Of a DNA stretch of 26,603 bases, positions 3 to 24,099 are shown piece after piece. This DNA is from Psammoneis japonica (taxonomy: Eukaryota), in NCBI GenBank assembly GCA_008632985.1, contig QPGO01000255.1, positions 62,001-88,603 of the forward strand. The letters are read 5' to 3'. Both the position numbers and the translations under genes were made by a program. Under the pieces are notes generated by a model. That model did no database searches, was not told the origin of the DNA, and worked only from the letters and a program-made list of their open reading frames with translations. The number at the start of each line of letters is the position of its first letter. Positions within the stretch are counted from its first letter, which is position 1.

Positions 3-1892
3 AATGCGGCGTATGTGCGACAATGTGAGGCAGTGATGGGGCCGGCTGCATTATCTTGTGTGAATTTTCCTCAGTTTCCCATGGGCGTGTTAGCCGCGTT
101 GGCTCAAGCGTACGATTCCTTGGGGAGGCCGATCGACCGGGGTGTTGATGCCGAATCAACCTCACAAAACGTTCATGTGTCTACTGATGGTGTCTTCATG
201 GTTGCGCAGAAGAACAACACCACGGCTGCTTCTGGAGAACCGAATCCAAGCCGTGTTCACTTGACTCCTCGACCAATCCCTCGAAAGCTGAAAGATGTTG
301 TGAATGGTCTTGCCTCTCCCGACGAAGAATGGTATGTTCTTTGGCAAGTGGTGTTCGTCGCACACAAATTCGCATCCAAGGTTTTTGAACGCGAATTAGG
401 GTTGGAATCAGTGTATTCTCTAGAGAAGCTATGCCGGGCTACGACTGTAGACATCAATGACGCCGAGCAGGTTGTTGAGACGCAGATGAAGCCTTTTGAC
501 TATCCAGAATTGCCGCAAATAGTTGTGAGGCGGAGTAAACCCTCGCAAGCAACCAGCAAGAAGGCGTCACAGAAGCCCAACTCGAGCACTGGAGAGGCTA
601 CGAAAGTAGACACCAAAGGTGCCAAGGAGGTTGTGGAGACGTCGATGAAGCCTTTTGGATATCCAGAATTGCCGCAAATTGTGAGGCGGGGTAAATCCAC
701 GAAAGCAACCAGCAAGAAGGCGTCACAGAAGCCCGACTCGAGCACTGGAGAGGCTACGAAAGTAGACACCAAAGACGCCAAGGTGGTTGAGGAGATGTCG
801 ATGAAGCCTTTTGGCCATCCAGAATTGCCGCAAATTGTGAGGCGGAGTAAACCCCCGCAAGCAACCAACAAGAAGGCGCCACAGAAGCCCAACCCGAGCA
901 CTGGAGAGGCTACAAAAGAAGAGACCAAAGGTGCCAAGGGGGTTTTGGAGACGTCGATGAATCCTTTTGACTATCCAGAATTGCCGCAAATTGTGAGGTG
1001 GAGTAAACCCCCACAAGCAACCAGCAAGAAGGCGTCGCAGAAGCCCAACCCGAGCACTGGAGAGGCTACGAAAGTAGACACCAAAGACGCCAAGGTGGTT
1101 GTGGAGACGTCGATGAAGCCTTTTGGCTATCCAGAATTGCCGCAAATTGTGAGGCGGAGTAAACCCCCGCAAGCAACCAGCAAGAAGGCGTCACAGAAGC
1201 CCGACTCGAGCACTGGAGAGGCTACGAAAGTAGACACCAAAGACGCCAAGGTGGTTGTGGAGACGTCGATGCTGCCTTTTGACTGTTCAGAATCGCCACA
1301 AATTGTGAGGCGGGGTAAATCCTCGAAAGCAAGCAATGAGGAGAAGTCACGGACGCCCAACTCGAGCCCTGGAAAGGCTACAAATAATGTAGACATCAAA
1401 GACGCAAAGGAGGTTGTGGAGACGTCGACGAAGCCTTATCACCATCTAGAATTGCCTCAAATTGTGAGGCGGCGTAAATCCTCGAAGGCAAGCATTAAGA
1501 AGAAGTCGCAGACACCCAATTCAAGCCCTGGAAAGCCTATGCCGAAAGTTGTATTGTTTCATGGAATTGTTTGGAAAGCTCTAGAAAGTGTTGGTTGGAC
1601 GTTGGATCGAGGCAATCGACCGACGGACTTTTGTTACTTTCCACCCGGCGTTGCTCGCGGCGAAGGATTTAGAAAACGTGAGGATTTCTTTGACAGTGTC
1701 AAGCAGGTCATGAACTTTATCGAGACGGATCCTCGATGGAAGGACAAAGAAGAGGTCGTTGTAGGCTTGAAGATGTTCAGGGCATGCTCTAAGCTGCAGG
1801 ATGAGCTCAGGTTCAAGTCGCTTCTCCCCAAAGGTCAAATGACGGTTGAGTGGTTAGTTAGTCAGGTAGAGAACAAAAAGCAATCAGAGTAA
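3..1892 (+). CDS. Hypothetical Lys/Ser/Thr-rich protein with seven ~52-aa tandem repeats and a globular-looking C-terminal domain; 5' end probably outside the window
   Basis: Reading frame is open from position 3 to TAA at 1890-1892. The repeats are all in frame. The C-terminal segment (WKALESVGWTLDRGNRPTDFCYFPPGV...DFFDSVKQVMNFI) has normal protein composition. Confidence 0.8.
   Translation, partial: NAAYVRQCEAVMGPAALSCVNFPQFPMGVLAALAQAYDSLGRPIDRGVDAESTSQNVHVSTDGVFMVAQKNNTTAASGEPNPSRVHLTPRPIPRKLKDVVNGLASPDEEWYVLWQVVFVAHKFASKVFERELGLESVYSLEKLCRATTVDINDAEQVVETQMKPFDYPELPQIVVRRSKPSQATSKKASQKPNSSTGEATKVDTKGAKEVVETSMKPFGYPELPQIVRRGKSTKATSKKASQKPDSSTGEATKVDTKDAKVVEEMSMKPFGHPELPQIVRRSKPPQATNKKAPQKPNPSTGEATKEETKGAKGVLETSMNPFDYPELPQIVRWSKPPQATSKKASQKPNPSTGEATKVDTKDAKVVVETSMKPFGYPELPQIVRRSKPPQATSKKASQKPDSSTGEATKVDTKDAKVVVETSMLPFDCSESPQIVRRGKSSKASNEEKSRTPNSSPGKATNNVDIKDAKEVVETSTKPYHHLELPQIVRRRKSSKASIKKKSQTPNSSPGKPMPKVVLFHGIVWKALESVGWTLDRGNRPTDFCYFPPGVARGEGFRKREDFFDSVKQVMNFIETDPRWKDKEEVVVGLKMFRACSKLQDELRFKSLLPKGQMTVEWLVSQVENKKQSE
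447..1535 (+). repeat. Coding tandem repeat, 7 copies, 156-bp (52-aa) period
   Basis: Anchor CCAGAATTGCCGCAAAT and variants at 504, 663, 819, 975, 1131, 1287 and 1446, giving spacings of 159, 156, 156, 156, 156 and 159 bp. Confidence 0.97.
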
Positions 1893-2294: not shown

Positions 2295-2470
2295 TCGGCA
2301 TGATCGTCAAAAATTGTCTGGAATCGCACCGTCGCACTCAGATTTATTTCATCGCTTACCATGGTTCAGGGGAGAGTCTTACCTCCACAGGCTATTTTAT
2401 TTCTGGCTAGGAATCCTGTCTTTACTCTCAAGAGTGTCGATTGCTATTTGAAATGTACATTTTGTAATAG

Positions 2471-4201
2471 TTAGCGCTGACCGTAATCAGACGCGATGCC
2501 TGTTTGTCCCTGTGTGGCAGCCTGAACTTGTGTACCTCCAACGTTGGCTTCTAGGCCCTTGTACTCGCGTTTCCTTAAAAATTCGGAAGCCGCACTCTTG
2601 TACTCTGTGAGCTGACCCTTTCCAGGGAGTGCTGCAAGGTCTACATTGTCGGAAGCATCAATTGTTTTCTTTGATGGCTCGTACTGCCCCGTCACCAACG
2701 AGAAGTACGGAGCATCTTCGTCTCCTTCCAAAGTGTCAGTAGCGTCTGCAACCCGATTATCCTTTGCCAAAAAGTCATTATAATCCAGGCTGTACGCCGT
2801 TGAGCCCCACTCAACATTTCCAAGCGCCATATCGAGTTCCAAAGGAGTAATCACAGGAACGTGAAAGTCTCGTTCATCGTCTAGCAAACTGTTTTCACCA
2901 CAAGCGACAAGCACAAAACAATCAATCTCGCCAAAATTTGCAAGCTTTGCTCCATTGATATTGCCTACAGCAAAGGTATAACAGGCTCGTTCTGCAGCTT
3001 CAATCAAATTTCGTAGCGATGACACCACAGTCTGAAAGTGTCTTTGCGAGAGAGTGCCAACCAAAATTCCAAAGACAGATTCATCGCGGGCTTTCTGAAC
3101 GAGATAAAATCGACGGTTTAACTGGCGATTCAATGTTTGTGGTAAATCAGTCTCAAGTTGCTTGGTTGCCGGAGAGTAAGTCCAGTAGCTGGCTGGTGAT
3201 GGAGGTGACGATATGAATCGTAACAATGTGTTGACATATTGACGACTGCTGCTGGAGGAAGATTCTCCCGGAGATGCGTCACCGATAAATAGCAAAGTAA
3301 CGCTCGAAAGATCCACGTCTCGTGGGATGTGCAAGCCCCCGACAGTAAAAGTCTCGCGATCTGCGGTGTATTCTGATGGATCAACTTTGTCTCCCTCAGC
3401 TTGTGCCGACTCGTTCTGTTGCTCCAAAGGTTTCCAGATCTGATTGTTTTGTGCGCAATCGCTCTGACAGCTGTCTGACGCTTCTTGACAGCATGGCTTT
3501 TTGCTGTCACCATGTTTATCATTACTTTTCGTGGCTGTCGCTGGAGTCGGTATCTTTCCCATGATAACGTCGAGATCTCCAACGTCGTGGAGTAATTTCT
3601 GTAGCCCTTGCATGGCATGAAAGTATCGCACCTCGTAGAGGAGTAGAAATTTGTTGACATTCTGTTCCTCCGCTTTCTCTATTATACATTCTGCACATAC
3701 ATTTACATCCAAGTCGGTAACACCAAAGCCATAAAGCACCGGAAGCGACAAGGCCGGACTAAGACACGCATGTCCGTAATGGACCAATACATCGGCTTGC
3801 AAATGGAGAGCTGAAGTCTCATCGGGGCAACAAGAGCCAAACGTTGTGTCGCCTAAACAAAACACAAGCGGAGGCGGCACGTCCTCTTCTGACGACAATG
3901 CGTTTTCCATGGCCCAGCACACCTCAGGACCGTCCTCCAACAATTCATCCGGTAACTGCAACGCGACTCGACACAAGAAACCATCATATTCATCACCATT
4001 CTTTGTTCGGTCCTTTGTAGCCTCCAACACTTCTTTGCTCAGTCGTTCCATTTCGTAATGCGTTTCAATCGGAACGGAGCCCCTTGGTGAAACGATTTGC
4101 GCCTTGGATTGTTCAGTGTCGGCAGCTTCCGTCATGATGCGTGAACCGTCATCAAACATGAGCTGTGGAGGTGCTGCGGCCTTTTGTTGCTCCTTACTCA
4201 T
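2471..4201 (-). CDS. DPH2: Diphthamide biosynthesis protein 2 (2-(3-amino-3-carboxypropyl)histidine synthase subunit 2)
   Basis: Intronless 576-aa ORF with Dph1/Dph2 family motifs RVALQLPDELL, LGDTTFGSCCPDE...ADVLVHYGHACLS, RRFYLVQKARD..VFGILVGTL, KLANFGEIDCFVLVAC and PVITPLEL. The C-terminus is Dph2-type (PYFSLVTG...AASEFLRKREYKGLE...GQTGIASDY). Confidence 0.95.
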   Translation of the reverse strand: MSKEQQKAAAPPQLMFDDGSRIMTEAADTEQSKAQIVSPRGSVPIETHYEMERLSKEVLEATKDRTKNGDEYDGFLCRVALQLPDELLEDGPEVCWAMENALSSEEDVPPPLVFCLGDTTFGSCCPDETSALHLQADVLVHYGHACLSPALSLPVLYGFGVTDLDVNVCAECIIEKAEEQNVNKFLLLYEVRYFHAMQGLQKLLHDVGDLDVIMGKIPTPATATKSNDKHGDSKKPCCQEASDSCQSDCAQNNQIWKPLEQQNESAQAEGDKVDPSEYTADRETFTVGGLHIPRDVDLSSVTLLFIGDASPGESSSSSSRQYVNTLLRFISSPPSPASYWTYSPATKQLETDLPQTLNRQLNRRFYLVQKARDESVFGILVGTLSQRHFQTVVSSLRNLIEAAERACYTFAVGNINGAKLANFGEIDCFVLVACGENSLLDDERDFHVPVITPLELDMALGNVEWGSTAYSLDYNDFLAKDNRVADATDTLEGDEDAPYFSLVTGQYEPSKKTIDASDNVDLAALPGKGQLTEYKSAASEFLRKREYKGLEANVGGTQVQAATQGQTGIASDYGQR

Positions 4202-5072
4202 CTTGCAAATTCAGATTCTTGCAAGGCATGTGTTAAAATGAAACTTGAGAAGAGAAAGACTCTAGAGATGGGAGCAGTCTTTCACTCGCCCTAATGGTTG
4301 CTATCATTAAAAAGAAACTTAATGCTTGGTGCCTGGTGCTGGTTGCTGTTGCGGTAGGCCCTAGGTTGAAGGTGATGGGTGAGTTTTTTGCGTGATGAGT
4401 GATGAGATTTCCTTCACGCTCCGTGGCGCGACGGACGGACGCTCATCTCGAGAATCGTCTGTCCTCCGACGGCATGAAAAATGACGTCATCCGAAAACCG
4501 ACAAACGAACGCGACGTTATTTTGGAATTTTGAGATTTTTTCAGATTTGGAGATGATCAATGATCAGGTGATCACACCTTGCGTTTTGGTTGATTGATGA
4601 GGTGGGTTCTGCAGCGTTGCCCGGCCCATCGCTGTTTGCAACAGGGTCGTTGATCAGGGGCCGACTCCGGCCTCCACAACTGCCCACTTCTTGCTCCTCA
4701 GCTTGCATCATCGATCTTTGGGTCAACGGATTCTTTCCTTTTTGAACAGGACTGACATTCTGACCGTCCTTCAGGTCAAAGAATTGCGAGATGATGTGCA
4801 CGGCTCAGAGCATTGCTGCGTGATTCATGGAACAAAACTTGGCAAGTTGGATCCCGACTTGCACTTCGAAGAGGAAGCTCTAGAGGCGGTCATGTGTCCC
4901 TGCTTTCGCCGATGAGTTCAACGGGCACAATGCGGCAATTCAAGCTGATGCTCTGACACTTCAAAAGTCAGATGAGGAAGGAAATGAGCAATCCCGTCAA
5001 GCAAGCCATGACAATGATGACGAAGGAGATCCATCTGCACGCATCACGCCATCGCGTCATCCCAACCAAAAG

Positions 5073-5188
5073 GTGAGTCAATCGTTCGGCTCATTGCATT
5101 GGTGGCTTTCCTTCCTTTGTTGCTTGTTCTTTTTGTTTGCCTGGGTTGTCGTTGTCTCACCATGACTTCCGTGCATGTGCCATTCCAG
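5073..5188 (+). other. Putative spliceosomal intron (phase 0)
   Basis: AAG|GTGAGT donor at 5073, T-rich body, TCTCAC branch-like motif at ~5155-5160, and TTCCAG acceptor at 5188 (alternative CAG at 5191). Splicing keeps the flanking frames joined. Confidence 0.65.
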
Positions 5189-5479
5189 CAGGTTCTTGAT
5201 CCCATCCAGCCTGTCATGCTGTTTGAAGATCCCAAGGCAACGCAGAAGTCACTGGAACAGATTGCTGGAGGTGAATTGGGTCATGAACAGGAACTGGTGC
5301 ACCTTGAATTGCTCAACCGTCGCCAAACCGAATGAGTCGAGGACCTTGCATCGAATGCAATCAAATGCAGGGAATCGGGACAAGACGAGCCGATTGAAAA
5401 AGAGAACGAAAGAACCAATCATGCGAGAGGTTGGGTCCTGTGGTTCATTCGTTGCTTCTTTGCAATCGCTTCATTGTGT

Positions 5480-8010
5480 CTGCTTGCTTGGTGCCATGTC
5501 TCTTTGGTTTCATCTTCTGAATCGAAACCGGTTGCGATTCGTCCTTTGGGCGGGATGCCTGTTGCATCGTCTGAGACTTTGATGCTCACTCCGTCCAAAG
5601 CCTCAAAAGCCATCATGATCGCCCCTTCCAGGGCACTTGCGATTGTTCCTTCCAAGGCATTGGCACTGACCATCCCGGACTCCGAGAAGTCTCTGACGAT
5701 TTGTGTTCCGCTTTGGAAGCCGGCATCATTGAAGGCCTTGGCAATCATTTCAAGTCAAGAGCTTGTTGCGTTGGAGGCTGCAACAAGTCGCGTTCCAACT
5801 CGGAAGCTTCTTCCATTGAGAGTGATTGCGCTGCATGTCCCGAGTCGAGGTGTTAGATTGTCGAGGGCTTCTTCTTTTCTTGTCTTGATTCAAGCGAGGC
5901 TCGACGATGCCACATGCGGCGAGGAAGAGGCTGGGCCAGTGACAAGTTGGTGGCCCGCCTTCTACGTTCTTGTCGCTCTCTTCGCAATCTACGTCTGGCT
6001 TCTCTTCTTCTGGCAGATTCACTCTTTGCCTCGAACGATGAACGACTCTCTCTTCCGACTGTCTTCACAATCGGGATGCACGGCTCTGGCGATCAGGCCT
6101 TTTGGTGAATTGATGGTGGCACCATCCAAGGCATTGGCAGTCGTTCCGTTGAAGGAATTGGTGCCTGTCATCCCAGATTTGAGCAAGGCCTTGTCGATTC
6201 GAGTTCCCGTGCCATCTGCTCCAACTGCACCCCTGATAAATTTGTTCACGTGGGTGCTTGTGATGGGCATTGTCTTGATTCTTTTTGGAGTTGTTTGGAA
6301 TCAAAACACGCCTTGTGACAACGAGGAAGGAAGGGATCTGTGCATTCTTCGTGACGGAGACAAGGAAGCTCAGTTCTGGATCGAAGATGTCAAGGAAGTC
6401 AAAGAACCACGATTCTTGCTCTTTTGGATTCGACATTTCTTTGCTGTCGGTTCCTGGATTTTCTTCGTCTGGTGTCTTGCCTCGTCTCCTCGACCAATGT
6501 TCCATTCTGTGAGCTTGTCGCCATCTCATTCTCGACCGACGTCTCTCATGTTGCCCACCGTTGGTGACATGATGACTGTGTCATCCAAGGTGCTTACGAG
6601 AGCGCCCTCAAATGCCGCCCTGATTGTCCCTTCTAAGGCACTGGCGATCGTTCCATCCAAGGCATTGGCGCTGACCATCCCGGAGTCCGAGAAGTCTCTT
6701 GCAGTTTGCGTTCCACTTTGGAAGCCGGCGTCATCGAAGGCACTGACGATCGTTTCAAGTCGTGAGCTTGTTGTGTTGGAGACCGCAGCAAGTCACATTG
6801 CAAGTCGCAAGCTTCTTGTGTCGAAAGCGATCGCAGCGCATGTTCCGAGTCAACACTCCAGGGCTTCTTCATTCATTTGCATGCCTCTGTCATGAGTGCT
6901 GGTTGCAATCGGTTGTGTCTTCATTCAAAAAAGATTCGATGATGCCAGGTGCGGTGAGGAAGAGCCTGGACCAACGATGACTTGGTGGCCTGCCTTCTGC
7001 CTTCTTGTCGCTCTCTTCACAATCTGCGTCTCGCTTCTCTTCTTCTGGTGGTTCCACTCTTTGCCCCGAACGATGAGCGATGCTGTCTGCCGGCTGTCTT
7101 CACATTCAGGATGTGCGGCTTTGTCAATCCGGCCTCTTGGTGAATTGACGGTTGTGCCATCCAAGGCCTTGATGGTCATTCCGTCGAACGCGTTGGCACC
7201 GATGATTCCGGATTCGAGCAAGGCCTTGTCGATTCGAGTCCCAATTTTGGGGCATGCGGCCGCTGCATCTGTTCCAAATGCCGCATCAATTCATGCACAG
7301 AGTCAGGAACACGTGCTGTCAGCCCCATCTACATTCCAGATAATTCCTTCGAAATGGTTGCTTGTGATTGGGCTTGTCTTGACAATCATCATTTGGCTTT
7401 CTTGTGCTCCAACCATGCCCAGTGACATCGATGAAGTGGCGACTCGCCGAGTGCTTTGCGATGGAGACGAGGAGGCTAAGGTGTGGATTAAAGACGACAA
7501 GAAATTCAAAGAACCACGAAGCTTGCCCCTGCTGATTCGTCTTTTTCTTGTTGTCAGTTCCTTGGGCTTTCTGGTCTTGCACCGTGCCTCTTCTTCACGA
7601 TCGATGAGCGGTTCTGTGGCGATGCCGCCATCTCACTTTGGATCGACGGCTTTGGTGGTTCGTCCAAGAGGTGAACTGATGATTGTTCCTGGCAAAGCTG
7701 TCATGGTTGCTCCTTCCAAGGCCTTGGTTGTTGTTTTGTCCACGGCTCTGGCTCTGACCATTCCGGATTCCCAAAAGTCTCAGGCTGTTCGTGTTCCACT
7801 TTGGAAACCGGCATTGTCTGAGGGATTGGTGATCATTTCAAGTCGGCAGCTTGTTGCTTTGGAGGCCATCACAGATCGTTTTCCGCCTCGGAAGTGTCTT
7901 GCATTGAATGCTTTTGGGCTTCACCTTCCGAGTCGAGCTGTTGTGATGTCGAGGTCATCTTCATCTGCTTTGATCAACGCGATTTGGTTGCTGGCAATGG
8001 GGCTTCTTTG
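5480..8010 (+). repeat. Internal tandem duplication, ~2.5 copies of a ~1.0-1.1-kb unit, itself built of related ALAIVPSKAL-type subunits
   Basis: VPLWKPA-encoding anchor at 5705, 6710 and 7793 (periods 1005 and 1083, both multiples of 3). The DDAxCGEEExGP..WWPAF block occurs at ~5900 and ~6935. Confidence 0.9.
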
Positions 8011-8739
8011 GATTGCAGTTCAAAATTGCATCGCTCCTGATGATGACAATGATGAAGAGCCTTTTCTAATTCATCGTGTACACGACGAAGACGCCGTTCA
8101 TCACCAAGACCCGATTCCGCCGCATCCCATGCCACCGGATCCTCCGATCCATCCTCAAGACCCAGGCCCTCCTCTTCAGGCCGAGGATGGCTTGCTGCCA
8201 CAAGATCCCCTGATTCAGCCGCCACCACTGCCACAAGACCCCCATGTTCCTCGTCAACACCCCATCCCAGTCCGCAGTTGTAAGCCACGAGTTCTTCGGC
8301 GCTCCGCCCGTCTTGACAATGCCGTTGGTAGCGTGCACCTTCATTCCGAGAACGCTTGCGTGCTTCGTCGGTCCTCGAGGTTCTCGTGCCGCACTTAAAA
8401 TGCCATTTCTCCAGTCTATTGCGGAAGCTGATAGCAGGCGGAAGCTGATGGCAGCCGGAAACTTCCTCCAGGGCACGTTCACGTGCATTCCTACCGTAAG
8501 GAGTTGGCCACAACTCTACGGCGCGGAGGGCCATTTGTTTGAGCGATTGTCCTGTCTTCAATGGAGCTTGCACGCACCTGCTGAGGCGGGGTAGGCATTC
8601 TTTTGTTTGACCTACAAGCTGCAAGCTTCATTGTTGATGTGCCACTTTTGTTCTTGCCTCGAGATGGAGACGGTATGTTGGTGCTGATTGTCGGACCCGG
8701 CAATTTGGGATATCGTTTTGTATTGTATTCGCATGTTGT

Positions 8740-9385
8740 TGTTGACGGGATTGCATTGCTGTTTCGCTGCGCCATCTTCTTGTTTGCTTTCGTCGTTGCT
8801 ATGATTTGTCATTGTTTTCGGATTTCGTATCGTATCGTTGTTGGAAGTGTGCTTGATGCTTGACCATGTTTGTTGCGTTGCAAATCATAATGTTGCGCTT
8901 CTGTGATTGCCGGTATCGTAGTCGATTTGCTCTTTTTTGCTTTGCTATTGGTGGGGCTCGTTGTCGTTGCTTTGCGGTTGTTATGCTTTTGTTTGCTGAT
9001 TAAGTGGCTGCAATCGTGCGTCTTTTTTTGTGTCGGCATTTGCGGGGTCATCGTCGATGTTTCTGCTGCTCCTTTTGCTGGCTGGCGGTGCTCTCATTGC
9101 CTGTGTTTGCGGGTTTGTTGTTTTCGCTTTGTATTCTTTGCTGCGGGGTTGCATATTACGTCGTCTTGCGTATGTTTTCTCGGTCGTCGTTGTTCTTGCT
9201 CCTGTTTGCTGTTGTTGTATGCTTTGTTTTGCATCGCTGTTGGAAGGTTTAGTCTTTCGTCATTGTCGTTTGCCACTGCCGATTAAGAACTTGTGTCCTT
9301 GACTTGCCAGTCCTTGCTACTCACATATTTCCCTTGTTATAGCTATGGTGGTATTCCGTCTTGATCCTCTAGCTCTCAAGAGGTG
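8740..9385 (+). repeat. T/G-rich dispersed repeat, copy A
   Basis: Shares TCGCTGCGCCATCTT, GCATTTGCGGGGT.ATCGTCGATGTTTCTGCTGCTC, CTGCGGGGTTGCA and TGTATGCTTTGTTTTG.ATCGC with copy B. The last two blocks also occur in copy C. Confidence 0.85.
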
Positions 9386-9409
9386 GTTGTCGGACCCTGC
9401 TTTTCCCAT

Positions 9410-9880
9410 GTTGTTGTTTGACTGCGGATTGTGCTGTTTCGTTTTGTATCGCTGCGCCATCTTGTTTTGTTTGCTGTCTTTTGGTTGCTATTCTTGTCAG
9501 TGTTTGCGGGTTTCGTTTCGTATTGTTGTTGGAATTTTCTTGATGCATGATTGTGTTTGCTGTGGTGCTAAATTACATTGTATTGTGCTTCTTTGATTGC
9601 GGGTGCATTATTTTGTGTTGCTTTGCTGTTGTCTTGCTTTTGTTTTTTGTTCCCTGATATAGTTGCTGCAATGTTTCGTTTTTTTGTACCTGCATTTGCG
9701 GGGTTATCGTCGATGTTTCTGCTGCTCTTGTCATTGGCTGCCTGGCTTTCGTTGCCTGTGTGTGCGTATTTCTTTTTTTCGCTTTGTATTCTCTCTGCGG
9801 GGTTGCACATTTCTCGATCGTCGTTGTTCTTGCGTCGCTTTGTTGTTGGTGTATGCTTTGTTTTGTATCGCGGTTGAAGG
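9410..9880 (+). repeat. T/G-rich dispersed repeat, copy B
   Basis: Collinear diverged copy of 8740-9250. Confidence 0.85.
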
Positions 9881-9934
9881 GTCGTCGATTGTTTCTGCTG
9901 CTCTTGTTGTTGGCTGCTTGGCTTTCGTTGCCCG

Positions 9935-11812
9935 CTACCGGCGGACTCAACCGGTCCCGCTGCCTCAACCGGTCCCGCCGGCTGACTGACGGACGCTCGC
10001 TAGAATTAGTACGTAGCCCTACGCACAAGCCGCCGCGATGGATGAGTTTGAGAGTGCCGCCACAACGCAATGATAACGCAAAGCGACTTCTTTCCGAAGG
10101 ACATGCGATACAATCCTACCCTTGAAGAAAGCTAGAATACTAGAAGCTATACAATCATATCTCTAAAGAACAACAAAATGCTATAAGTCTATAAGTCATT
10201 TCAATGGATTGCTTATCGTCGTCAACGGACAACGCCGAAGATGCCGCGACGAGTCGAAAATCACAAAAAAATTGATCTCTTACCTTTTGCGCCAAGTTCT
10301 ACTCTAGAGTGGCACTGTAGCACTCTAGAGAGTAGTAGCCCTAAATAGAGAGGCCATCCGCACGCACACCCACACTAACTAACTCTACCAGCGAGAAGAA
10401 ACAGCACGTTCGCCCCAACTCCATCTGTGCCCTGGTCCAAATTTCATCCATTGCACTTGTACCTCTCTACACCCGACTAGGAACTGAGTGCTCCAGGATC
10501 TGATTTCCCCATATGAGCAAAGAGTATCAAAAGATATCTGTCATGTAGAACATGGGCCTGGAAATGCCACTGCAAGCTTTAACGGTCAACGACAGTCACA
10601 CTGGAAAATGACAGGCAAAATGAAAATATGAGTGGAACAACGTACACAATAATAATCCATTGGGGTTACATGTCACAGTATACTCACTAGGGCACCTTTT
10701 AAATGTAGAGCTGAGTCGCCTTACTAATTTTTATGCCCCCAAGTAACATCAGCGGTTCGTGGCATCCGCGCATTCAAGAGGAGGCGATGAACCCGCCAAC
10801 ACAAGCCTCAACCTTCCCATTTTACCCATTGCAAAGCCTAGAGTCGTAGTTACACCACAAAGATCTCCCAAAATAACGTGGACAATATTGTGTCTTAGAT
10901 AATGATGATAATGCGGTTGAAGGGTAGGTGGAAAGGGTCAAAAAGGACCAGACACCTGTGCGCATGATCGAGACGCACCAAAAAAGGCTCGTGAGGTATG
11001 CAAGTTTCGTCAAAACGAGTCCAAAACTCAATCAATCACAACATGCTCACAGGGTTACCTTCTTTGGACTATGGAAAGGCTGTCTGACAAATGCCAATGT
11101 CGTGAGTATCCCCGAGACTCCATCGCATCGTTTTGTTCCCACGGCATGCACTTTCAAGAAATTGTTATCGCCGAAAAACGACATGCTGTGATTACGAGCC
11201 GACCAAGACCTTCAAAAACATATCAAGCTTGTCACAAGTCCAAATAAATAGTAAAAATAGATGTACCAAAAGATGTGGAGTGGGATGAAGCACAAGGCTC
11301 CCAAACGGATGCGCTTTTGTGATGACGACGACGTGAAAAAGATGCCAATATTGCAGATGCAATAATCGACCGTACGAGACGATATATCCTCCTATGAAGC
11401 TGTAACAAAGCACAAACAACATCTTTAGTGAGTAGATAAACGGTATAAAATGAGAAAACACAGAAAGAACTTACCACGGCAACGTTGTCGACCATTCAGA
11501 TGTCACCCGTACCGTGCAGCAATCGAGTCACGAGTCGAGGCACGCAACCGTTTGTACCGTGTGTCGCCACCAAAGCCCCCCAGGAAACCAAACCAATGCA
11601 TCAACCTATTTATAACAACGATAGAAAAAGATCCCACATGAAAGATACATCGACCCAACGATGTATGCCATGGCGAGATGCATCAAAGTACAACATGCCG
11701 TTTTCAATGCAAAATCGGGACCGGTTGAGTCCAATCGAATTATTCGACTCTCGTGCTTCACCGTGGTGAAATTTCAGTCACGGACGCCGGGACCGGTTGA
11801 GTCCTCCGGTAG
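9935..11812. mobile_element. Non-autonomous DNA transposon, 1878 bp, 25-bp terminal inverted repeats, CCCG target-site duplication
   Basis: Left TIR CTACCGGCGGACTCAACCGGTCCCG (9935-9959) matches the reverse complement of 11788-11812 with 1 mismatch. CCCG flanks both ends (9931-9934 and 11813-11816). Extra subterminal copies of the core lie at 9964-9977 and 11716-11732. No transposase ORF is recognisable. Confidence 0.88.
11400..11474 (-). other. Putative 75-bp intron inside the TIR element
   Basis: On the minus strand: GTG|GTAAGT donor, CTACTCACTAA branch-like motif and TTTGTTACAG acceptor. Confidence 0.5.
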
Positions 11813-12039
11813 CCCGTGTGTTCGGGTTTCTTGTTTTCGCTTTTTATTCTTTGCTGCGGGGTTGCATATTTCGTCATTCTGCGTGTGCTTTCTCGATCGT
11901 CGTTTTTCTTGCGTCGCTTTGCGTTTGGTGTATGCTTTGTTTTGTATCGCGGTTGGAGGGATTGGTTCTTCCTCTTTGTCGTTCGTCAGTGTCGTGTGTG
12001 AATTGGCGGTCATGTCTTGCTGCGCATCACCATCCTTAT

Positions 12040-12804
12040 CTACTCACCTTTCTTTCCCTGTTATAGCTTCGGTGGGATTCCCCCTTGTAAGACCGGCTCT
12101 CAAGACGTAGGACCAAGGTGAGTGCCTATATTTTCGTGATTGGATGCTTGTTGGTGCGTCTTACTCTTTTTGGTTGTATTCACTGGAGCCTCTACACCAC
12201 CATGTCAAAACATCCATTTCGAGACTACAATCGCCTTCAACTCAATCTGTCCCTCTCACGACGCTCTACTCCATCCACAACGTTTCATTTGTCACCACAA
12301 AACCTCCAAATCGCTCGCCCAATACCTCGAGTTCGTCCTGTCCGTCCTTTACTGAGTTGTTCTCTCTTCACCACGATTTCTCTATGATCACTCTCCACCA
12401 CCACAAATTCCTCTAGTTCGTCATGTTCGTCCTTTATCTCTCTTCCGACTCGTTACTCCCTCCACGATGTTTCATTCGTCACCAAAACTCCTTCACATCG
12501 TTCGTATTCGACATAAACCACCCCCTCACCTCCAATTCCTCCAGTTCGTCTTGTCTACTGTACTGTGTTCCATCTATTCTCCATGATCCTTCTCCACAAG
12601 CTGATCCTTCTCCACAAGCTCCAATACCTCCAGTTCGTCTTGTCCGTCCAGTGTTGCGAGCCGTCCATGCCACTCACTCAATCTACTCGCGAGTAGGGTT
12701 TTGCTAGGCGGTGACACTGAAGGTGAGTAGTGTGTGCTTTTGTCCTATCGTTGCCACATTATTTCTGTTTTCGCTCGTTTCACTAATCACTCGCTGTTTC
12801 TTAG
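12040..12804 (+). other. Chain of splice signals suggesting a multi-exon transcript without a long ORF
   Basis: Acceptor CTCAC..TTCCCTGTTATAG at 12066, donor AAG|GTGAGT at 12118, possible acceptor at 12696 or 12707, donor AAG|GTGAGT at 12723, branch CACTAAT at 12781, and acceptor TTTCTTAG at 12804. Confidence 0.45.
12265..12650 (+). repeat. Degenerate C/T-rich repeats plus an exact 18-bp tandem duplication
   Basis: AATWCCTCNAGTTCGTCNTGT at 12321, 12406, 12534 and 12623. TGATCCTTCTCCACAAGC at 12584 and 12602. Confidence 0.85.
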
Positions 12805-12876
12805 GTTTGGAGTGTGATCCTTCTTGGATTGGATCGCACTCCAAACCGCCGCTCTCTCACCCCCCCCCCCCCCCCC
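12804..12876. other. 17-bp-stem hairpin followed by a C17 homopolymer
   Basis: GGTTTGGAGTGTGATCC (12804-12820) pairs with GGATCGCACTCCAAACC (12831-12847), with one T:G wobble and a 10-nt loop. C run at 12860-12876. Confidence 0.85.
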
Positions 12877-14109
12877 AAGGTCTCCCTCCCTTGATCCCTC
12901 ACAGGTTCGAATTGGGCCGTAGCCTCATGTCGATACACAAGGTTTAAGTAACAGCGGGTCCCGCCCCGCGCCTTACGTTCCTCGAACAAAATGTGGACCA
13001 GGAGTTTATCGACATTTGGCTACGCGACTTTAGTAACCCTTGTCAGGCCGTGCCTTATCTTGTACAGTAGTGCATTGATAAGCTTTTAGAATATGAATAA
13101 GGAACTTCTTTCCTTGTAGGAGCCGGCTAAGGCAATTCAGTCTTCTTTGGATCTAGTTTAATAGCTTGAAAAAATGTTTCTCTAGTAAGCATGTTGAATG
13201 GTTACGTAACAAATCATCTGGTCCATGCCGATTTGTTACATCGTGCGATCGTCTATTGGCTCTTGCATTCGTGGGCGTCGAGGTACAACATGTAAACCCA
13301 CGTCTTCGTTCGTCTCCCTCTTCTTTAGATCTGCACGTCGACAGCCTCAATTTTTCCCTCGAACAGCTAGTTCCAAGATGCAAACGGAACAACGCTTTAC
13401 TCTCCTCTTGACAGTTTCCATACGTCATATCATGGAGTGTCCTTGCTATTCTGAATTGCATGCGCCATCGCCATTTTCCCGTGTCTTTGTTCTCCCTAGG
13501 TTTTCTGTTGCCGACGGCTGCCGACCTCCGTCCAATTGAAAGCACGTTTATGGAAACGCTGTGCCCAAAACACAAGTAAAAAGGGTGAGAAATCTGCATG
13601 AGACAAAACATACCTAAGAAATATGGCATAATAAAGCGGCGTCACGATGCTATAAATACCCAGTACTGCGTACCCAATCTCATTGCCGCACGGTCGCAAT
13701 TTTTAGTCGCAGAGTAAAATAAAAATGCTGCCAATTGTCACTTGGTAAGCTCATCATCCGCTTGGAAGACTAATCTGTGAGTAGTTCAGCATCTTCTGAT
13801 CGACTATGCAGGAAATGTCTTGAGTGTCTATTGCTTTAGTCGTAGCCTCAACCGATCCCTTGCTGATCGATCAACCTGCTTGGAAGCGCATCATCGCGGG
13901 TACGTCGACAAAGAGGGACCCATCTACTGACTTCGCGTGGGAACAATGGTGCGCAGCTCAAATGAATCAGCAGTTCAGGTGGCCGAGCAATTTGCATCAA
14001 ACCAAACTAATAGCCATCAAATAGCCCCTTTCCAACTTCTTTTTGTCTGCCTCCAGTCCTTCGCTTCTGCCTCTGCTGTCACAATTGGCGGCAGCTCCAG
14101 CCCGTCTTT

Positions 14110-14890
14110 TTAAACGCTCGTTTCCAATTCACGTTCCACGTCTTGTCTAGACTGTAAGGGTTGAGTTGAAGAAGCACCTCGTTTTACATTGACATGCAAC
14201 TGTCCTTCACTATCCTTGAACTGCGGTGCCAGCTGTTGCAACGTTTGTTCCCAACGCCCCAGCCGTACGGAAATCTTGCAAAATCCTGCGTGATGCATCC
14301 TCTGGACTCCCGCGGCACTTGGAATCCGCGAAACGAAACAACATGCCTTCTCGTGCAAGGAAACGAATCGATCCATCGTCTGTCGGCTGAAGCTCGAGAG
14401 GATCAAAGCCACAGCGTTCCTTGACTTTGGCCTGCCAGTTTGCAAATGTTGTGTCTTTTTGACAATACCATGAAGCTCGGTAAATCTCGTCGCCCAAGTC
14501 AAACTTATGACAACCGTATGCGACAACAGAGGGGGGTTCCATACTATCCGCGTCATCTTCGTCAAAGAAGGGGTTCGGATACTCAATGTCCTTTCATCAA
14601 GGGCAGAGCTAGAATCGCCATACACGTGTCGGTCAGAGTTTTCCTCGAGACTGACTTGTGGGTTAAGGTGAACGCCGTCCGAGCGCAGGTTTGTATCCCA
14701 CCGGAATGGGGAAAATGTTGCAAATCAAGAAGAGTCGACCGGACATAACACCAATCATTTTTTTTGTTGGCCATTGCTGTAATTTGTAACGTTCCCTGCG
14801 AAGACGTCCACCAAGACGCCGCCTCAGAAGCGAGACTTCTCAGAGGCGTCAAAAGCCAAAACAGTTGCATTACGCCAATACCGCAATGCA
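14110..14890 (-). pseudogene. Probable frameshifted gene relic of unknown function
   Basis: Protein-like stretches in alternating frames: ...EENSDRHVYGDSSSALDE, then KDIEYPNPFFDEDDADSMEPPSVVAYGCHKFDLGDEIYRASWYCQKD... No recognised domain. Confidence 0.3.
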
Positions 14891-15378
14891 ACTCATGGAC
14901 GGAAAGGACACCACGCGGTTACAATAGATCCAATGAAACGTTGCGATAAATCCACAGAGCCTGAGAATCCTCGACCGGGCGTTCAAACAAAACAAGCGGA
15001 GGTAAAACCATGGTTGTCGAAATATATCTATTTGATGAATGGAACACCTGCGCAGCTACGGAAATGGCGACAAACGAAGCTCGTAAGTCTATCATCGAGC
15101 AGTCAAAAGGGATGTATCAAACAACAGATGACTTACCGGTGGTGCTGTAAAATGATGCATGTGTTATATAAGTACCGGAATTGCAACACGGGTGAGCAAC
15201 ATATTTTAGCAACAAGGCTGCTGCCTGGACGAACAGCATGCGTAGTTGAATGACGATTTCAAACATTTATGACCTGTTTCTCCCATTTCTAAGGATTGAC
15301 GTGGTTACAAGTAGAGATCAAGCTTCATGATTGTATTTTACGTGAACGATGTGGATCGGACAAAGACAAGATAAGAAG

Positions 15379-15930
15379 TTAATAGGTCGACGTACCTGCT
15401 TCAGCATCGCTCCAATTACTCTCGTGAACAGGTTCCTCGTCAACAACCTTTGCTACGGCTTTGCTCGTATTGGTTAGCTCGGCCGGCGAATGAGTATCCA
15501 GTGCTGTATTGTAAGAGAGTTGCAAAGGTAAGCTGAAGCACAAAGAGAAGACAAGAAGCAGATAGATACACGCCATTCATCAGAAATCATCTCCACGACG
15601 GTCCATGTTGTAGTCTTGTAGAAGTCGTAATAGAAAGAAGGATTCAACGCCAAGGACACCTGCACATGATTCAGGATACTGGCAATACCGGTAGCCCTTG
15701 AAGTTGATTTGATTGTCGAAGTTCCGACGGCAAATGCTTAGCATATCCTCCAAGTTGATTTCTCGATCCAAGAAGTACGCTACAACTTGTACCGGTGTCG
15801 TCATGGCCATGGTCTTGCCCTCGTCATTGGCTCCAAACAGCTAGGCAGCGATTGTATTCAAGGCAGCTCCTCCTCTCGCCAAATCGTCCACCGAGTAGGG
15901 CTCATCCACCTTTGCCATGTTGTCGAGGCC
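15379..15930 (-). pseudogene. Possible disrupted gene fragment ending in a hydrophobic segment
   Basis: Consecutive short protein-like ORFs (15580-15810, 15474-15665, 15379-15576) in shifting frames, with an in-frame TAG upstream at ~15841. Confidence 0.25.
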
Positions 15931-16242
15931 ACAACGTATCCTTAGTATTCCCGAACACCCGTCTTGGAGTTTCTTACTTTGCGGTGTCAAGAGAGAGTCG
16001 ATCTATAACATATAGCAAAGAAAAAAGCGACAGGAGGGAAGTTGTAAGCAGATATACGGAGAGAAACCTTCCTGACCAGCATATGTACTTCCGGCCATCA
16101 ACAAAGTAGACTGCCGCAGCAACGAGAATGCAGTGTCAAAATACCTACGTTTAAATCTCGGAGTGCAGGTTGTACGCTATCACGAATTTCTACATTTGCG
16201 CTCGAGAGATTACTGAGAAGGATTTGTCGGCATGATCAAACG

Positions 16243-16521
16243 TTACTCCGTTCGTCGGTTCTTCTTCTTCTTCAAGGCTGTATTCATATCGGCCAAGGCA
16301 GAGAAGGCATCTGCGCTTGCCGTAGCACTGTCACCACTGCTGCTCTCCGATAATGCCAACAAGAATGAAACAGCATGGCCATGGCGACACTGCACCGTCG
16401 TTGATACAACACCAAAACCTGTCGCTGGATACAACAGCAATACTGTAACAGCAATGGCGTCGTTGCTCACCACTTCGCTTCGTCGGCGGAACATTCGCAT
16501 CGACATTATGGCACCTGGCAC
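16243..16521 (-). CDS. Possible N-terminal fragment of a gene with a targeting-peptide-like start
   Basis: 92-aa ORF with a hydrophobic stretch followed by a Ser/Thr/Ala-rich segment. No homology recognised. Confidence 0.2.
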   Translation of the reverse strand: MPGAIMSMRMFRRRSEVVSNDAIAVTVLLLYPATGFGVVSTTVQCRHGHAVSFLLALSESSSGDSATASADAFSALADMNTALKKKKNRRTE

Positions 16522-18099
16522 TGTCGTGTGGTCACCAAATAGGTTATGAATTCCAATCGCGCGAATTTGCCTGCGCTTTGTACAATATCGTCAGTGTGTA
16601 TTCAGATTTATTCTTTCCTGAAGACTGCAAATGACATTGTCATTACCGCGGTCTACATCATTGTTGAACTATATAAATCGCATCATGCATTTCAAACATA
16701 CAGCGCCTGACATTGTACATTCGAAAAAATCCGGAGGTTTCTCGTGTTCTTCAGTGTAGAAAATCGAGGGAGATGATGATGATGATGCTTTCATTTTATT
16801 TGAGAAAGGACAGTCAGATCAAGATGTCAGCAGATCTGAGACCTTACAGTTGTCAGTGCCGGCATGTCATGCGGTCTTGTGGATGTGAAGCACAGCTTCT
16901 AGAAACTGGATTCTGTGCTTTCTCCGTGACTCACATTGAACTTTTTCGTGCTGTTGAACTTTTTCTTGAGCCTTCAGCAGTGTTGGAGAGGCTCGGTGCG
17001 AACCAATCATTTTGGTGAGTGCTGGCGGTCCACCAGAGTGAACGGAAATGGAGCTCCCTTTCAAACCAGGAAGTGTCACTCAAAGCAAGACCGCGCCTTT
17101 GCGCTCCACATCGCCATGGGCTGGATTGGAACACATTGCTTTGAAATTGATTTCGTGCCATGCAGGTTCATTGGATTTAAGCCACATCAAGCGTGCTGCA
17201 CTTGTGTCAGCGTGAAGCATGGCTCTGCTGGTGCTTGTGGACAAAAGCAAAAGCGAAAGGCCTTGGTTGGGCTTTCTCGACAAGACTTCTGCTGCGCACT
17301 TGGAGAACACATGCAACCAAACCAATGCACGACAGCTGGCCCCACCGACAAGAGTTGTCAAGGTTGACATGTGCCATCATCAAATGGCAATTTCACTTTG
17401 GAGCACAGTTGCGAACATTTGGACAAGCGGAGAACCACGCATGCCATGTGGTGGAAAAGATCTTGGGAAGAAATTCTGATCCCGTCGGTGGAATTGGATC
17501 CAAACATGAAATGATTGAGATTGTTGTTGGCAACCTTGCATGGAAGCAGCTTGGCTGGAATCCCACCACAAGTCGCTTGGTCAATGCAGTCTGCTGCACA
17601 CTGGCACTCCTTTCAACAATGATGACCACGCTGCAAAACGTGACAAAGGCGCTCACTTGGCACATGCTGTGCTGCTTGGAATTGGACAGTGCTGGTGGAG
17701 ATGTCTGACTCGAGAAAGCAGTCTCTCAAATTGTTGGGTCAACTTGGATTTGCCAGAGGATGCAATGGACAGAGAAATCACAAGGGCGACCCTGACGAGT
17801 GGACATCAAGAAAACCATTTCTCGTGGTTTGCCAGCATGACCAACTCTCTTGCTGGGTCACTCGCCTGGTCACTCAACAACCGCCCCAGCAAAGAAATGA
17901 CCCCCTGAGTGACAAAACGTCATCAACAACTGTCTGACCCCTCTGCCAGCCAGTTGCCTCTAGCCTCAGTTTGGCTTTGCCATGTGATTTCTCAAAATTC
18001 CCCGGGATTGCCACCTTTCACCCTGTTTTTCTGCGGGAAGGGTGAACTTGCCATTTGTCACATGTGGGCTAAATGCGTGCATAAAAAAATGCATTGGCA

Positions 18100-20720
18100 A
18101 CTCCCGTGCTTCCCCTCTTGCACATTTCTGCACGTTCTACATGCCAGGATGTGCGGCAGGAGCCAGACAATCCCCTCCTCCTCTGGACCCGCCTGAGATC
18201 TCTGAAGACGACCTGCTCTCAACACTGAGCAAATGCAAACCAGGAACTGCAGCTGGCCCTTTTGCACACTCAACAGACTTTCTGAAGGCCCGCTCCTTTT
18301 ACAAAACATCTGCCCCCACCAAAACACAAATCCGTCCCCACCTCGTCCCAGCCTTTCGAGACTTTCTCCTCCTCCCACTCACCAACTCTGTCCCTCCCGA
18401 TGCATGCACCATCACTCCTCTCCTCCAACTGCTTTGTTGCCCTTCACAAAGACCCAACCAACCTCAACAAGCTCCACCCCATTGGATGTGACACCACCCT
18501 GCATCGCACAGCAGGCACCCTCACCATGACACAAAATGTCTCCAACTTCACTGACTGCCTCCTTCCTGATGGCCAATTCAGCATCGGTGTAAAAAAGGCG
18601 GGCTCAACCACCTCATTCACACTGCTCACGCCAACATTGAATGATGTCTCAATGTGTCTGTTCCATCGCATGCCTTCCTCTCCCTTGACCTCACAAACTT
18701 TTTCAATGAATGCTCCCGAGACACCTGTCACCAACAACTTGACACCATCCCCCAAATGCAACACACCTGCTGCACATCTTCAATCTTTTCTGCAATGACC
18801 CCAACAAATGCTGGTGTCATGACCCCACTGGCACTTGGCGCTCCTTCCTTCAATCTGAAGGATTCTGCCAAGGATGTCCTTTTGCCTCTCCTTTTGTGGC
18901 GCCAGTCCTCAGAGTCGTCCTCAAACAACTCAACCTTGAACTCTGCCAATGCCTCCCCTCTTCCAACATCACATCTGCAGCTTCCCTCATTGACGACACC
19001 AGCACATGGCTGCCCCACACCTGACTGCCATGGTTCATTGAACATCTCACTGAAATCACCCCTGCACGGTGTCCACCTCAATTGTGACAAAACAACAGCT
19101 GTCCTCACCTTGATCACCAGTGATTCCCCTCTCCCACATCTCCCTCCTGCACATGCCACTGCCTTGCACAAAGCTCTCTCCCTGCTCAACCCTGCCAATG
19201 ACCCCCAACTCTCTCTCCTGAAATTGCCACTGGCAACCGCTTCCTTGGCTGCTTCCTTGGCCAGCCCATCGGAAGCGCGGAATTTGCAAGCACCTTTCTT
19301 GAACAAAAAGCTTCCAAGTTCCAAACCAACCTCAACTGCCTTTTGTCCTGGCTGCATGACATCCAAACAAAAAGCACTCTCTGCCATGCATGTGCCACAT
19401 CCTCCCTTCTACACCTCCTTGCCTCTGACATCTGCTGGCACAACTTTGACCCAGACAACCCCGTTCACACCGCGTGGACATCACCTTTCCAACAAGACAC
19501 TCAGTGCTGCTGTCACAACTTTCTCCAACACCCAACACCTCACCGCTCACCAAGACCCTCTTCCACCACACACATTGCTCCTCTCTCACCTCCCTGCATC
19601 TGCTGTGGCATTGGTCGTCAATCATTGACCATCAGCACCACACCCTTCTTTGCTGCCCAACTGACCCATTCCCTCCGATGCATGTGCAACCCACGGCCTC
19701 ACCACCTCTGCTGATGAACCCCAACTCATGCCCCCCTTCTGTGCCTGTTCCCTCTGCACATGGGCTGCATTGAGACAATCCCTCCATCTGCATCAAGCAC
19801 TCTGTCACCATGGCAATGCTTTGCTGCCACACCTTGACCCCCTGCCTCCCTCTCTTCCTGCTCCAGTTGAATCTTTTCCACTCAAGACGCTCCCTCACGC
19901 CATGTGTCACCTGCACTTTGCCAGCCAACTTAACCACCCGCCATGGCCCGCCACACATCACCACTGCACTCTCATCCATCCTTTCACCCTTGACAAGCCT
20001 CCCATTGCACACTCTCTCCTGTTCCACAGCTTCCCAATGTCTGTTGCCTTCCATCTTCCAACTCACACCACAAGAACGTAAACTGCGCTTGCCCATCTCC
20101 TCTGATCAATCCACCCCCATCCTGTGCCCATCTTGCTCTGGCACAGTTGACCCACATGGTGATCATTCCTTTTGTTGCCACTCTCTTGGTCACAAAACCA
20201 CCCCATCCAACTCCCTGCGTGATGGTCTTTTTGCACTTCTCCAAACTGTTGGACCCCTGTCCGGCCAATGTGCCACCTCCTTGGACAATGTGGTGCTGCT
20301 GTCATTGCTTCCTCAAATGATGCTGGCATCTGCCTTGCACCGTTCACCATTGATCACCTTGGTTCAACCGGCTGCTTTGCCCATTGCCTCCTCTTTGGTG
20401 ACACCCAAACACATCCCCTCCCTCCCCCTCCCTGGAACTTGGAATCCTCTTTACACCGCCCATCTGCTTGTGATGCCTGTGCCAATGCCCAACTCTCCCC
20501 ATCGGGCCTTCTTCCCACTGCCACATCTGCCTGGAAAGCCATCACCTTGACCAGGTTTGGTCTCACACACCACACCACCACCCCAAGCCAGTGGGCCTTT
20601 CAGAATCTCAGTCTCACAGTTGCCAAATCCCTCACTGGCCAACTTCTTTGCTGCTCCATCAAACTTCAATCACAAGTTGCAAATCCAACAAGAGAACCCT
20701 CCCATTCCCCACCTGCATGA
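18100..20720 (+). mobile_element. Degenerate non-LTR retrotransposon, CRE-like (RT, Cys/His knuckle, C-terminal tail)
   Basis: Frameshifted motifs in the expected order: KPGTAAGP, FVALHKDPTNLNKLHPIG, LLPDGQFSIGV, LSLDLTNFFNECSR, QSEGFCQGCPFA, LIDDT, GVHLNCDKT, RKLRLPI...CPSCSGTVDPHGDHSFCC...SNSLRD, and PFTIDHLG. The endonuclease core appears deleted near 20280. Confidence 0.8.
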
Positions 20721-20984
20721 CACCATTTCATCCCACTGTGCTGTCTGCACTCCACACCACACCACTGGGTGACATTGCACACACGTGACCTTCTCACACA
20801 CATGCACTCCAAACTGTTCATGACAAAAACAATCGACCGACCACAACGAAAATGGGCAACACGCCATGGCACATTTGCAACACATTTGTGATGGCTTTTG
20901 CCTGTCAATCATGACACCGTTCAATGCACTCAACAATGTCAATTGAACAGGATCTGTGGCACAAAACACAAGATGAAACATGAT

Positions 20985-23920: not shown

Positions 23921-24099
23921 ATCTGCAAACTGTCGAATGTTGCAAAACAAGAAAATGCGCACAATGGCAGAACCCTGGGAGCAGAAAAACAGAGTGTCTT
24001 TCTTCCGAACTTTTTGCAAATTGCTCTGAATGATTTCCATGCCAGCACTGCTGAAACCCACTTGCATCAAGGACCCGATGCAACTGACGGCAGACATCA

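Follow-up and report, generated by a model that had tools for sequence, protein, structure and literature searches.

Gene content of the block

The 26,603-nucleotide window analyzed here (the whole of positions 62,001 to 88,603 of contig QPGO01000255.1, Psammoneis japonica assembly GCA_008632985.1) is nuclear DNA of a diatom and contains a 3.7-kb block, at 4363-8066, that has lost nearly all of its TpA dinucleotides and has kept its CpG. The block holds most of an orphan gene read on the plus strand and is compared throughout with a longer domain at the right-hand end of the window (domain 2, 16901-26603), in which TpA and CpG are both lost. To the left of the block lies DPH2, the gene for diphthamide synthesis protein 2 (2471-4201, minus strand; Pfam PF01866, E=3.9e-65), which served as an unconverted control. 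The best named relatives of DPH2 are found in the pennate diatoms Fragilaria, Seminavis, Nitzschia, Cylindrotheca, and Pseudo-nitzschia (41-50% identity), the top match overall being 58% identical.

The long coding frame of the orphan gene extends from 5189 to 8398 on the plus strand, with in-frame TGA codons at 5333-5335 and 6893-6895 and a terminal TAA at 8396. Over the 1021 codons between 5336 and 8398 it is interrupted by one internal TGA, compared with 21-39 TGA in each of the other five frames, which argues that the frame is coding DNA or a recent relic of coding DNA. Approximately eight hydrophobic segments of 19 residues, a transmembrane length, are present in the frame, and the product would be a repeat-built, multi-pass membrane-like protein. 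A candidate first exon (4884-5072, plus strand) consists of a 93-codon open segment, no ATG being found at its start, and ends at a GTGAGT donor at 5073. The candidate intron that follows it (5073-5188, plus strand, 116 bases, GTGAGT...CAG) would join both frames in phase.

Internally, the frame is built of three units arranged in tandem on the plus strand, namely U1 (5390-6394), U2 (6395-7495), and the partial unit U3 (7496-8065). U1 and U2 are 71% identical over 956 aligned bases, U3 is 62-64% identical to either of them, and the nine internal indels that distinguish the units all have lengths divisible by three. The only two tyrosine codons of the 1021-codon frame, TAC at 5963 and 5990, are located in U1 and align with TGC at 6998 and 7025 in U2. 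These Tyr/Cys pairs, as well as the lack of tyrosine in the open reading frame (ORF) 6896-8398, had been pointed out in an earlier, sequence-only reading of this DNA, and both were borne out. In addition to the Tyr/Cys columns, one aligned column of the units reads TGC, TGT, and CAC (Cys/Cys/His).

Database searches placed the gene in no known family. An exhaustive phmmer search with ORF 5336-6892 against 1.84 billion representative proteins returned no matches, and a word-indexed search with ORF 6896-8395 of 5.8 billion proteins, confined to lengths of 275-875, returned no relative. Pfam assigned no family to either ORF, PHROGs gave no match for three pieces of the gene, and ESM Atlas gave no usable match. 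None of the pattern matches obtained in metagenome contigs (116) and viral contigs (16) was confirmed as a relative, and comparison of the block with the remaining window by blastn and tblastx yielded nothing. The other DNA windows of the same survey likewise contained nothing resembling the gene. By Pfam, PHROGs, the viral contigs, and blastn/tblastx, the block is without a transposon or virus signature. Nor does anything similar stand beside DPH2 in any of three metagenome loci with DPH2 relatives (36-47% identity), which show normal TpA and CpG and are too distant as outgroups. On these searches the gene is an orphan, and its sequence suggests that it is probably dying.

The sequence-only reading had called the gene host-like. 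The coding frame or relic, the plausible intron, and the flank-like G+C content stand in favor of this description; the lack of a relative, the two TGA codons, and allele differences that look unconstrained (see below) stand against it. The term is therefore unproven, having only the candidate intron to draw on, together with a G+C content (0.508) that approximates the 0.47-0.49 of the flanks once approximately 100 A:T-to-G:C changes are allowed for.

Loss of TpA and retention of CpG

Dinucleotide composition was profiled over the window with a sliding interval of 1 kb, and the TpA positions of the block were listed. Only 12 TpA survive in 4363-8066 (4518, 4881, 5854, 5963, 5990, 6237, 6595, 6634, 7330, 7341, 7477, and 7489), an observed/expected ratio (o/e) of 0.06. 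The expectation from base content is 216, or 106-135 after scaling by the o/e of the flanks (0.49 on the left and 0.62 on the right), where TpA is mildly avoided as it is throughout the window; the Poisson probability of 12 or fewer ranges from 4e-31 to 2e-42. Eleven of these sites fall in 4520-8050, for which about a dozen had been claimed previously. The loss is paired with a gain of TpG and CpA, the o/e of TG and CA being 1.30 and 1.38 in the block against 1.20 and 1.18 in the left flank (1.18-1.21 in the flanks together), and the other dinucleotides are little changed. About nine in ten of the TA steps of the block thus appear to have been rewritten to TG or CA.

CpG is essentially kept in the block, the loss amounting to at most ~15%. 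The 205 CpG counted correspond to an o/e of 0.86, the flanks having 0.93 and 1.02. When the DNA is divided into non-overlapping 500-base windows, the mean CpG o/e is 0.86 for the block (n=7), 1.01 for normal DNA (n=25), and 0.29 for domain 2 (n=19), placing the block slightly under normal DNA (one-sided Mann-Whitney p=0.009). The hallmark of methylated-CpG decay, an o/e far below 1, is accordingly missing from the block. The profile agrees with the earlier statement that CG is abundant here, unlike in domain 2, the two halves of which have CpG o/e of 0.36 and 0.23.

Depletion of TpA is as strong upstream of the long frame as inside it. The 973 upstream bases (4363-5335) contain 2 TpA against 60 expected at random, the part of the block within the frame contains 10 against 155, and the candidate intron contains none. 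Since the loss spans non-coding upstream DNA and the candidate intron, codon use does not explain it, as the sequence-only reading had also concluded.

The left edge of the block is sharp, with TpA at 4355 and 4362 and the next at 4518, and the right edge is graded between 7489 and approximately 8300. The last part of the frame (8067-8398, plus strand), beyond the fully erased zone, has 5 TpA (o/e 0.36) and a CpG o/e of 1.09; as TpA persists there, the erased zone ends within the frame. On the other side the erasure is bounded by DPH2, only 160 bases off, which is of normal composition (TpA o/e 0.53, CpG o/e 0.99). Within the TpA-free zone, in the interval from DPH2 to the orphan gene, the segment 4400-4599 is dense in CpG (19 CpG, o/e 1.77) and contains the palindrome TGACGTCA; by its sequence it looks like a shared promoter.

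In domain 2, the 28 remaining TpA correspond to an o/e of 0.04-0.05, and the o/e of TG rises to 1.86-2.10. At the edge of this domain, TpA stops at 16900, whereas the CpG o/e drops gradually, from 0.56-0.61 to 0.26-0.31, over approximately 1.5 kb. No stretch with CpG lost and TpA retained was found anywhere in the 1-kb profile of the window. No Pfam family was detected in 30 ORFs of domain 2 and the intervening DNA, and the domain edges gave no Rfam family and no tRNA.

The sequence context of the 40 TpA surviving in both erased domains together was set against that of 513 TpA in normal DNA. After strand symmetrization, the 5' neighbor of a survivor is T in 42% of cases (22% in normal DNA), C in 29% (22%), A in 10% (27%), and G in 19% (30%), a shift with a chi-square p of 7.5e-6. 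The contexts ATAT, GTAT, ATAC, GTAC, and CTAT account for 35% of normal sites and for none of the 40 survivors. The mutator thus seems to prefer purine-TA-pyrimidine, the survivors being biased to pyrimidine-TA-purine, although some surviving TpA may be new, having arisen by later mutation. This context bias would be a first hint of the extended motif of the mutator.

Changes of TpA to TpG or CpA never create stop codons and remove TAA and TAG. An open frame in such DNA is therefore no proof of a living gene, since a swept gene stays open while its tyrosine codons turn into cysteine or histidine codons, and annotators should be warned that TpA-erased DNA is rich in long open frames.

A second version of the locus

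One public run (X1), which contains 65% of the sampled words of the block, yielded a further version when its Logan contigs were aligned on 2401-22400 at 80% likeness. The comparison below covers the best-supported 40 of 1573 differences, 30 of which fall in the block, adjacent pairs being read jointly. Single X1 contigs in the block are approximately 100 deep, and the summed depth is 216-256 in five bins and 142 in the sixth. The summed depth of DPH2 is similar (188-214), so that the block gives no sign of extra copies, although summed depth is not a copy number. From the single contigs at about one-half of the summed depth, we infer that the two versions are two haplotypes of a diploid.

The differences in TA run in one direction. 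At eight sites (4639, 4655, 4677, 4756, 4796, 4811, 4815, and 6247) CA or TG in the window corresponds to TA in the other version, and the reverse was not observed among the differences shown (8:0, binomial p=0.008). At two further sites (5058/9 and 5565/6) the window has CA and the other version TG. The remaining differences comprise five CpG transitions, four of them losses in the window (4633, 5125, 6955, and 7019) and one a loss in the other version (5551); three transversions at which the other version has a CpG (6339, 7001, and 7410); six other transitions (4660, 4680, 5435, 5935, 6243, and 6993); and four other transversions (5555, 5558, 5913, and 6244). Among the eight one-sided TA sites, the window has CA at six and TG at two, too few for a claim of strand bias or transcription coupling.

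Seven of the eight sites are concentrated in one patch, 4639-4815, which in the other version has an approximately normal TpA density. Between 4756 and 4815 the other version accounts for a depth of 113 of 213.7, about one-half of the summed depth. The patch looks unconverted in the other version, and its normal density suggests that the erasure is patchy, allele-specific, and recent.

A trace of the same kind is found among the internal units. The pairing of CA with TG is the most frequent adjacent double difference between U1 and U2 (12 cases) and between U2 and U3 (7 cases); between U1 and U3 it ranks third (7 cases), behind CT/TG (10) and GA/TG (8). The other double-transition pairs among the units number 0-6. 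The CA/TG pairs fit independent hits on an ancestral TA in separate units, which would have occurred after the duplication.

Two estimates were obtained for the relative speed of the two losses. From composition, the survival of TpA is ~0.10 and that of CpG ~0.85-0.88, giving a per-site rate ratio of ~14-18. Among the differences shown between the two versions, 10 of at least 22 TA-type sites differ, compared with 5 of 209 CpG, giving a ratio of ~25 (odds ratio 34, p=1.5e-8). TpA erasure would thus outpace CpG decay roughly 15-25-fold per site. The sequence-only reading had proposed TA mutation faster than, earlier than, or independent of the deamination of 5-methylcytosine (5mC); the saturated TpA loss beside near-normal CpG, the edge of domain 2, and the two rate estimates all agree with this proposal and narrow it. 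Given the nesting of the two losses and these estimates, "faster" suffices for the pattern, and one silent state, with TpA as its fast clock and CpG as its slow one, would be sufficient to explain it; the two processes may also be independent. Among the differences shown, CpG transitions are also 6.7 times commoner per position than other transitions (5/410 against 6/3250, p=0.004) and fall mostly on the version that loses TpA, which hints that the block is methylated now.

Among the in-frame differences shown, 11 codons are nonsynonymous and 4 synonymous. This proportion is close to the neutral expectation, and the gene looks unconstrained, with the reserve that the sample is small. After 5877, the second version has 39 additional bases, inserted in frame, at the place where U1 is without 42 bases found in U2. 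The insertion is homologous to the part of U2 carrying the in-frame TGA at 6893 and reads TGG there. Another run from the same sample (X2), the kind of which was guessed as DNA, covers DPH2 at a depth of 50-83 and the block at 0-5; its joints with CT..AC ends indicate that it may be complementary DNA.

Two repeated neighbors in the same window retain their TpA. The left-hand gene contains seven tandem repeats (437-1539, plus strand; TRF: period 156, 7.0 copies, 87% matches), and the 1-kb windows over this array have TpA o/e of 0.42-0.54. The gene itself is an open frame (3-1892) that runs off the left end of the window, encodes the repeats as seven 52-residue units, and shows no convincing Pfam family. 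On the other side of the block, an inverted-repeat element of 1.88 kb (9934-11813) with 26-base terminal inverted repeats (96% complementary) has a TpA o/e of 0.78 and a CpG o/e of 1.04. This element is multicopy, since its summed depth is 3546-3752 as compared with ~100 per single contig of the block. Repetition alone is therefore not the trigger of the erasure.

Several further features of the inverted-repeat element were recorded. None of its 13 ORFs contains a Pfam family, two X1 contigs lack the element (skipping from 9929 to 11812), and the X2 joints with CT..AC ends fall within it, resembling the splicing of a minus-strand transcript. Its flanks, 9714-9932 and 11809-11960, are repeated (72-base copies at 93%, 42- and 19-base copies at 83-95%, with a spacing of 2058-2079), and a 43-base repeat pair, 176 bases apart, is located near the element. 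The element would therefore sit in, or have duplicated, a short-period array.

Copy number and base composition also vary within domain 2. The segment 20410-21743 has a summed contig depth of 939-2284 and no Pfam family in its ORFs, so part of this TpA- and CpG-erased domain appears to belong to a multicopy family. The plus strand of 18200-20500 is very rich in C and poor in G (in one instance, 123 C and 38 G per 300 bases), and its summed depth is 129-156, as for single-copy DNA. The o/e of TG in this segment is 2.2-2.5 and that of CA only 1.2-1.5, reflecting either a strand bias of mutation or an effect of normalization on skewed base content.

Proposed process, alternatives, and known systems

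We propose, with a probability of roughly 0.7, that the block, on a chromosome of pennate diatom type, holds a decaying orphan gene and was swept by a TpA-specific A:T-to-G:C hypermutation, and that CpG decay is a separate and slower process. The hypermutation would turn TA into TG, or into CA when the other strand is hit, and its chemistry would most likely be adenine deamination in 5'-TA-3' on either DNA strand. It would act in allele-specific patches and stop approximately 160 bases before the start codon of DPH2, the trigger probably being a local silent-chromatin state. The decay of CpG to TpG or CpA, running roughly 15-25 times slower per site, would be distinct from it, and the block would have retained its CpG for that reason. 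On this view, the block would have been targeted recently or would still be under attack, and domain 2, the older target, would have both clocks exhausted.

Several points weigh against this interpretation. The status of the second version as a haplotype is inferred and the rates are rough, given the 80% likeness, the 65% of sampled words, and the restriction to the best-supported 40 of 1573 differences. The allele differences are, without an outgroup, unpolarised. With respect to CpG, the deficit (0.86 in the block, 1.01 in normal DNA) is no larger than the variation among single genes, the left-hand gene having 0.88. Finally, the CpG-dense, promoter-like segment 4400-4599 seems unmethylated, which suits separate targeting of the two processes equally with a fast clock.

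Separate targeting, the alternative that survives best, is possible though on balance rather unlikely. According to it, the block never carried 5mC, and the mutator was drawn by a histone mark, by small RNAs, or by a lack of transcription. The CpG o/e of the block is indeed near those of the adjoining genes (0.88 and 0.99), and the segment 4400-4599 keeps its dense CpG inside the TpA-free zone. In addition, a study of Phaeodactylum reports that the methylation loss in a DNMT5a knock-out accompanies overexpressed young transposable elements (PMC9998398), and the block is without a transposon signature. However, the excess of CpG transitions over other transitions hints at methylation, and the window version is the one that loses at four of the five CpG and at all eight one-sided TpA sites, which hints at a shared allele-specific state. 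The 500-base windows of the block are slightly CpG-poorer than normal, and every CpG-poor stretch of the window is also TpA-free.

It is improbable that the block is an integrated viral or horizontally acquired piece targeted as non-self, as has been proposed for Bigelowiella. That neither the search of 1.84 billion representative proteins nor any other returned a relative is in keeping with foreign DNA, as are the absence of the gene beside DPH2 in all three related metagenome loci (at only 36-47% DPH2 identity) and the sharp left compositional edge. Against this, neither viral contigs nor PHROGs gave a match, a candidate spliceosomal intron is in phase, and the G+C content approximates that of the flanks after correction for the A:T-to-G:C changes. 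No terminal repeats bound the block, the only candidate being one weak 28-base pair at 75%.

Still less probable is a repeat-induced process, in which the three ~1-kb units would have been recognized as duplicated DNA and the mutation would have spilled over into the upstream kilobase. The block does contain a 2.6-unit tandem array, the units of which, by their CA-versus-TG differences, were hit independently after duplication. But the units are merely 62-71% identical, the erasure begins 1 kb ahead of the first of them, and both the multicopy 1.9-kb element and the seven-copy 87% array of the same window keep their TpA. Moreover, the main target in Bigelowiella natans is single-copy, according to the preprint cited below.

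A native composition, produced by selection on codons or on UpA in RNA or by RNA editing of a retro-copied gene, can practically be dismissed: TpA is mildly avoided window-wide (o/e 0.49-0.62), but the o/e of 0.06 also holds for non-coding DNA and the candidate intron. Both products, TG and CA, occur, the two versions found with run X1 are distinguished precisely by TA versus CA/TG, and the block bears no mark of a retro-copy, such as a poly-A tail or terminal repeats.

Under the proposed hypermutation, the CpG/TpA pair could rank silent domains by age, because TpA erasure appears separable from CpG decay and faster than it. Since the two versions differ in one patch, the locus would also be a natural place to measure the process. 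A wider extension, which we regard as unlikely, is that the mutator is not a virus or transposon defence as such and instead permanently scars any silenced locus, allele by allele, in patches some hundreds of bases long that can reach the promoter of a neighboring active gene, before or without long-term cytosine methylation. If this were true, TpA erasure would be a general means by which silencing of genes becomes irreversible in diatoms, with tyrosines lost and the frame left open, and each silent domain would carry two clocks, a fast one in TpA and a slow one in CpG, dating its shutdown.

Among known systems, repeat-induced point mutation (RIP) of Neurospora and other ascomycetes changes CpA to TpA, enriches TpA, makes stop codons, and needs duplicated DNA. 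RIP and the process seen in the block are alike in being regional, dinucleotide-specific transition hypermutation that kills genes (and, in RIP, transposons). They differ in direction, the block being depleted of TpA approximately ten-fold and having 1 internal stop in 1021 codons, and in the trigger, for here repeats of the same window are spared and DNA without sign of extra copies is hit. Methylated-CpG decay likewise yields TpG and CpA and is visible in domain 2, but it leaves TpA untouched, is the slower process by the per-site ratio given above, and has barely affected the block.

Deaminases such as ADAR and APOBEC edit viruses and retroelements, acting on RNA or on single-stranded replication intermediates. 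ADAT2, a further member of this group, has DNA as its substrate in amphioxus and trypanosomes, according to work cited in bioRxiv 10.64898/2026.01.13.699255. Deaminase editing by ADAR, APOBEC, and ADAT2 resembles the process proposed for the block in its A-to-G chemistry, 5' neighbor preference, and defence-like role, whereas here the changes are fixed in the chromosomal DNA of a non-retroelement, on both strands.

The closest parallel is the TpA hypermutation of the chlorarachniophyte B. natans. In full-text literature searches, no account of TpA-specific hypermutation in diatoms was found, and the process is in print only as one 2026 preprint (Mettrop et al., bioRxiv 10.64898/2026.01.13.699255), which mentions neither CpG nor diatoms. 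According to this preprint, 230 of 231 mutations in two viral inserts are A>G or T>C, all at TpA; the larger target is a single-copy, silent viral insert, and virophage DNA is also hit. Mutation accumulation gave a TpA rate of ~6e-7 per site per generation in only some lines, 81% of the proteins of TpA-poor clusters are unannotated, and an ADAT2-like deaminase is proposed, as yet unproven, as the agent (bioRxiv 10.64898/2026.01.13.699255).

By analogy, the signature of the block matches this hypermutation. In both cases TpA goes to TpG or CpA in bounded regions, the action is patchy (some lines there, one version here), the main target is single-copy there and without sign of extra copies here, and unannotated genes are affected. 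The differences concern organism, extent, and target: the viral insert of the chlorarachniophyte has a Rho of 0.45, whereas erasure in the diatom block is near-complete (o/e 0.06); and mutations were measured de novo in a viral target there, whereas they are read from sequence alone here, in a block without viral or transposon signature. New to the present locus, in comparison, are a target showing neither a sign of extra copies nor a transposon or virus signature, a patch confined to one allele, a rate ratio between TpA and CpG loss, and a context bias among the surviving sites.

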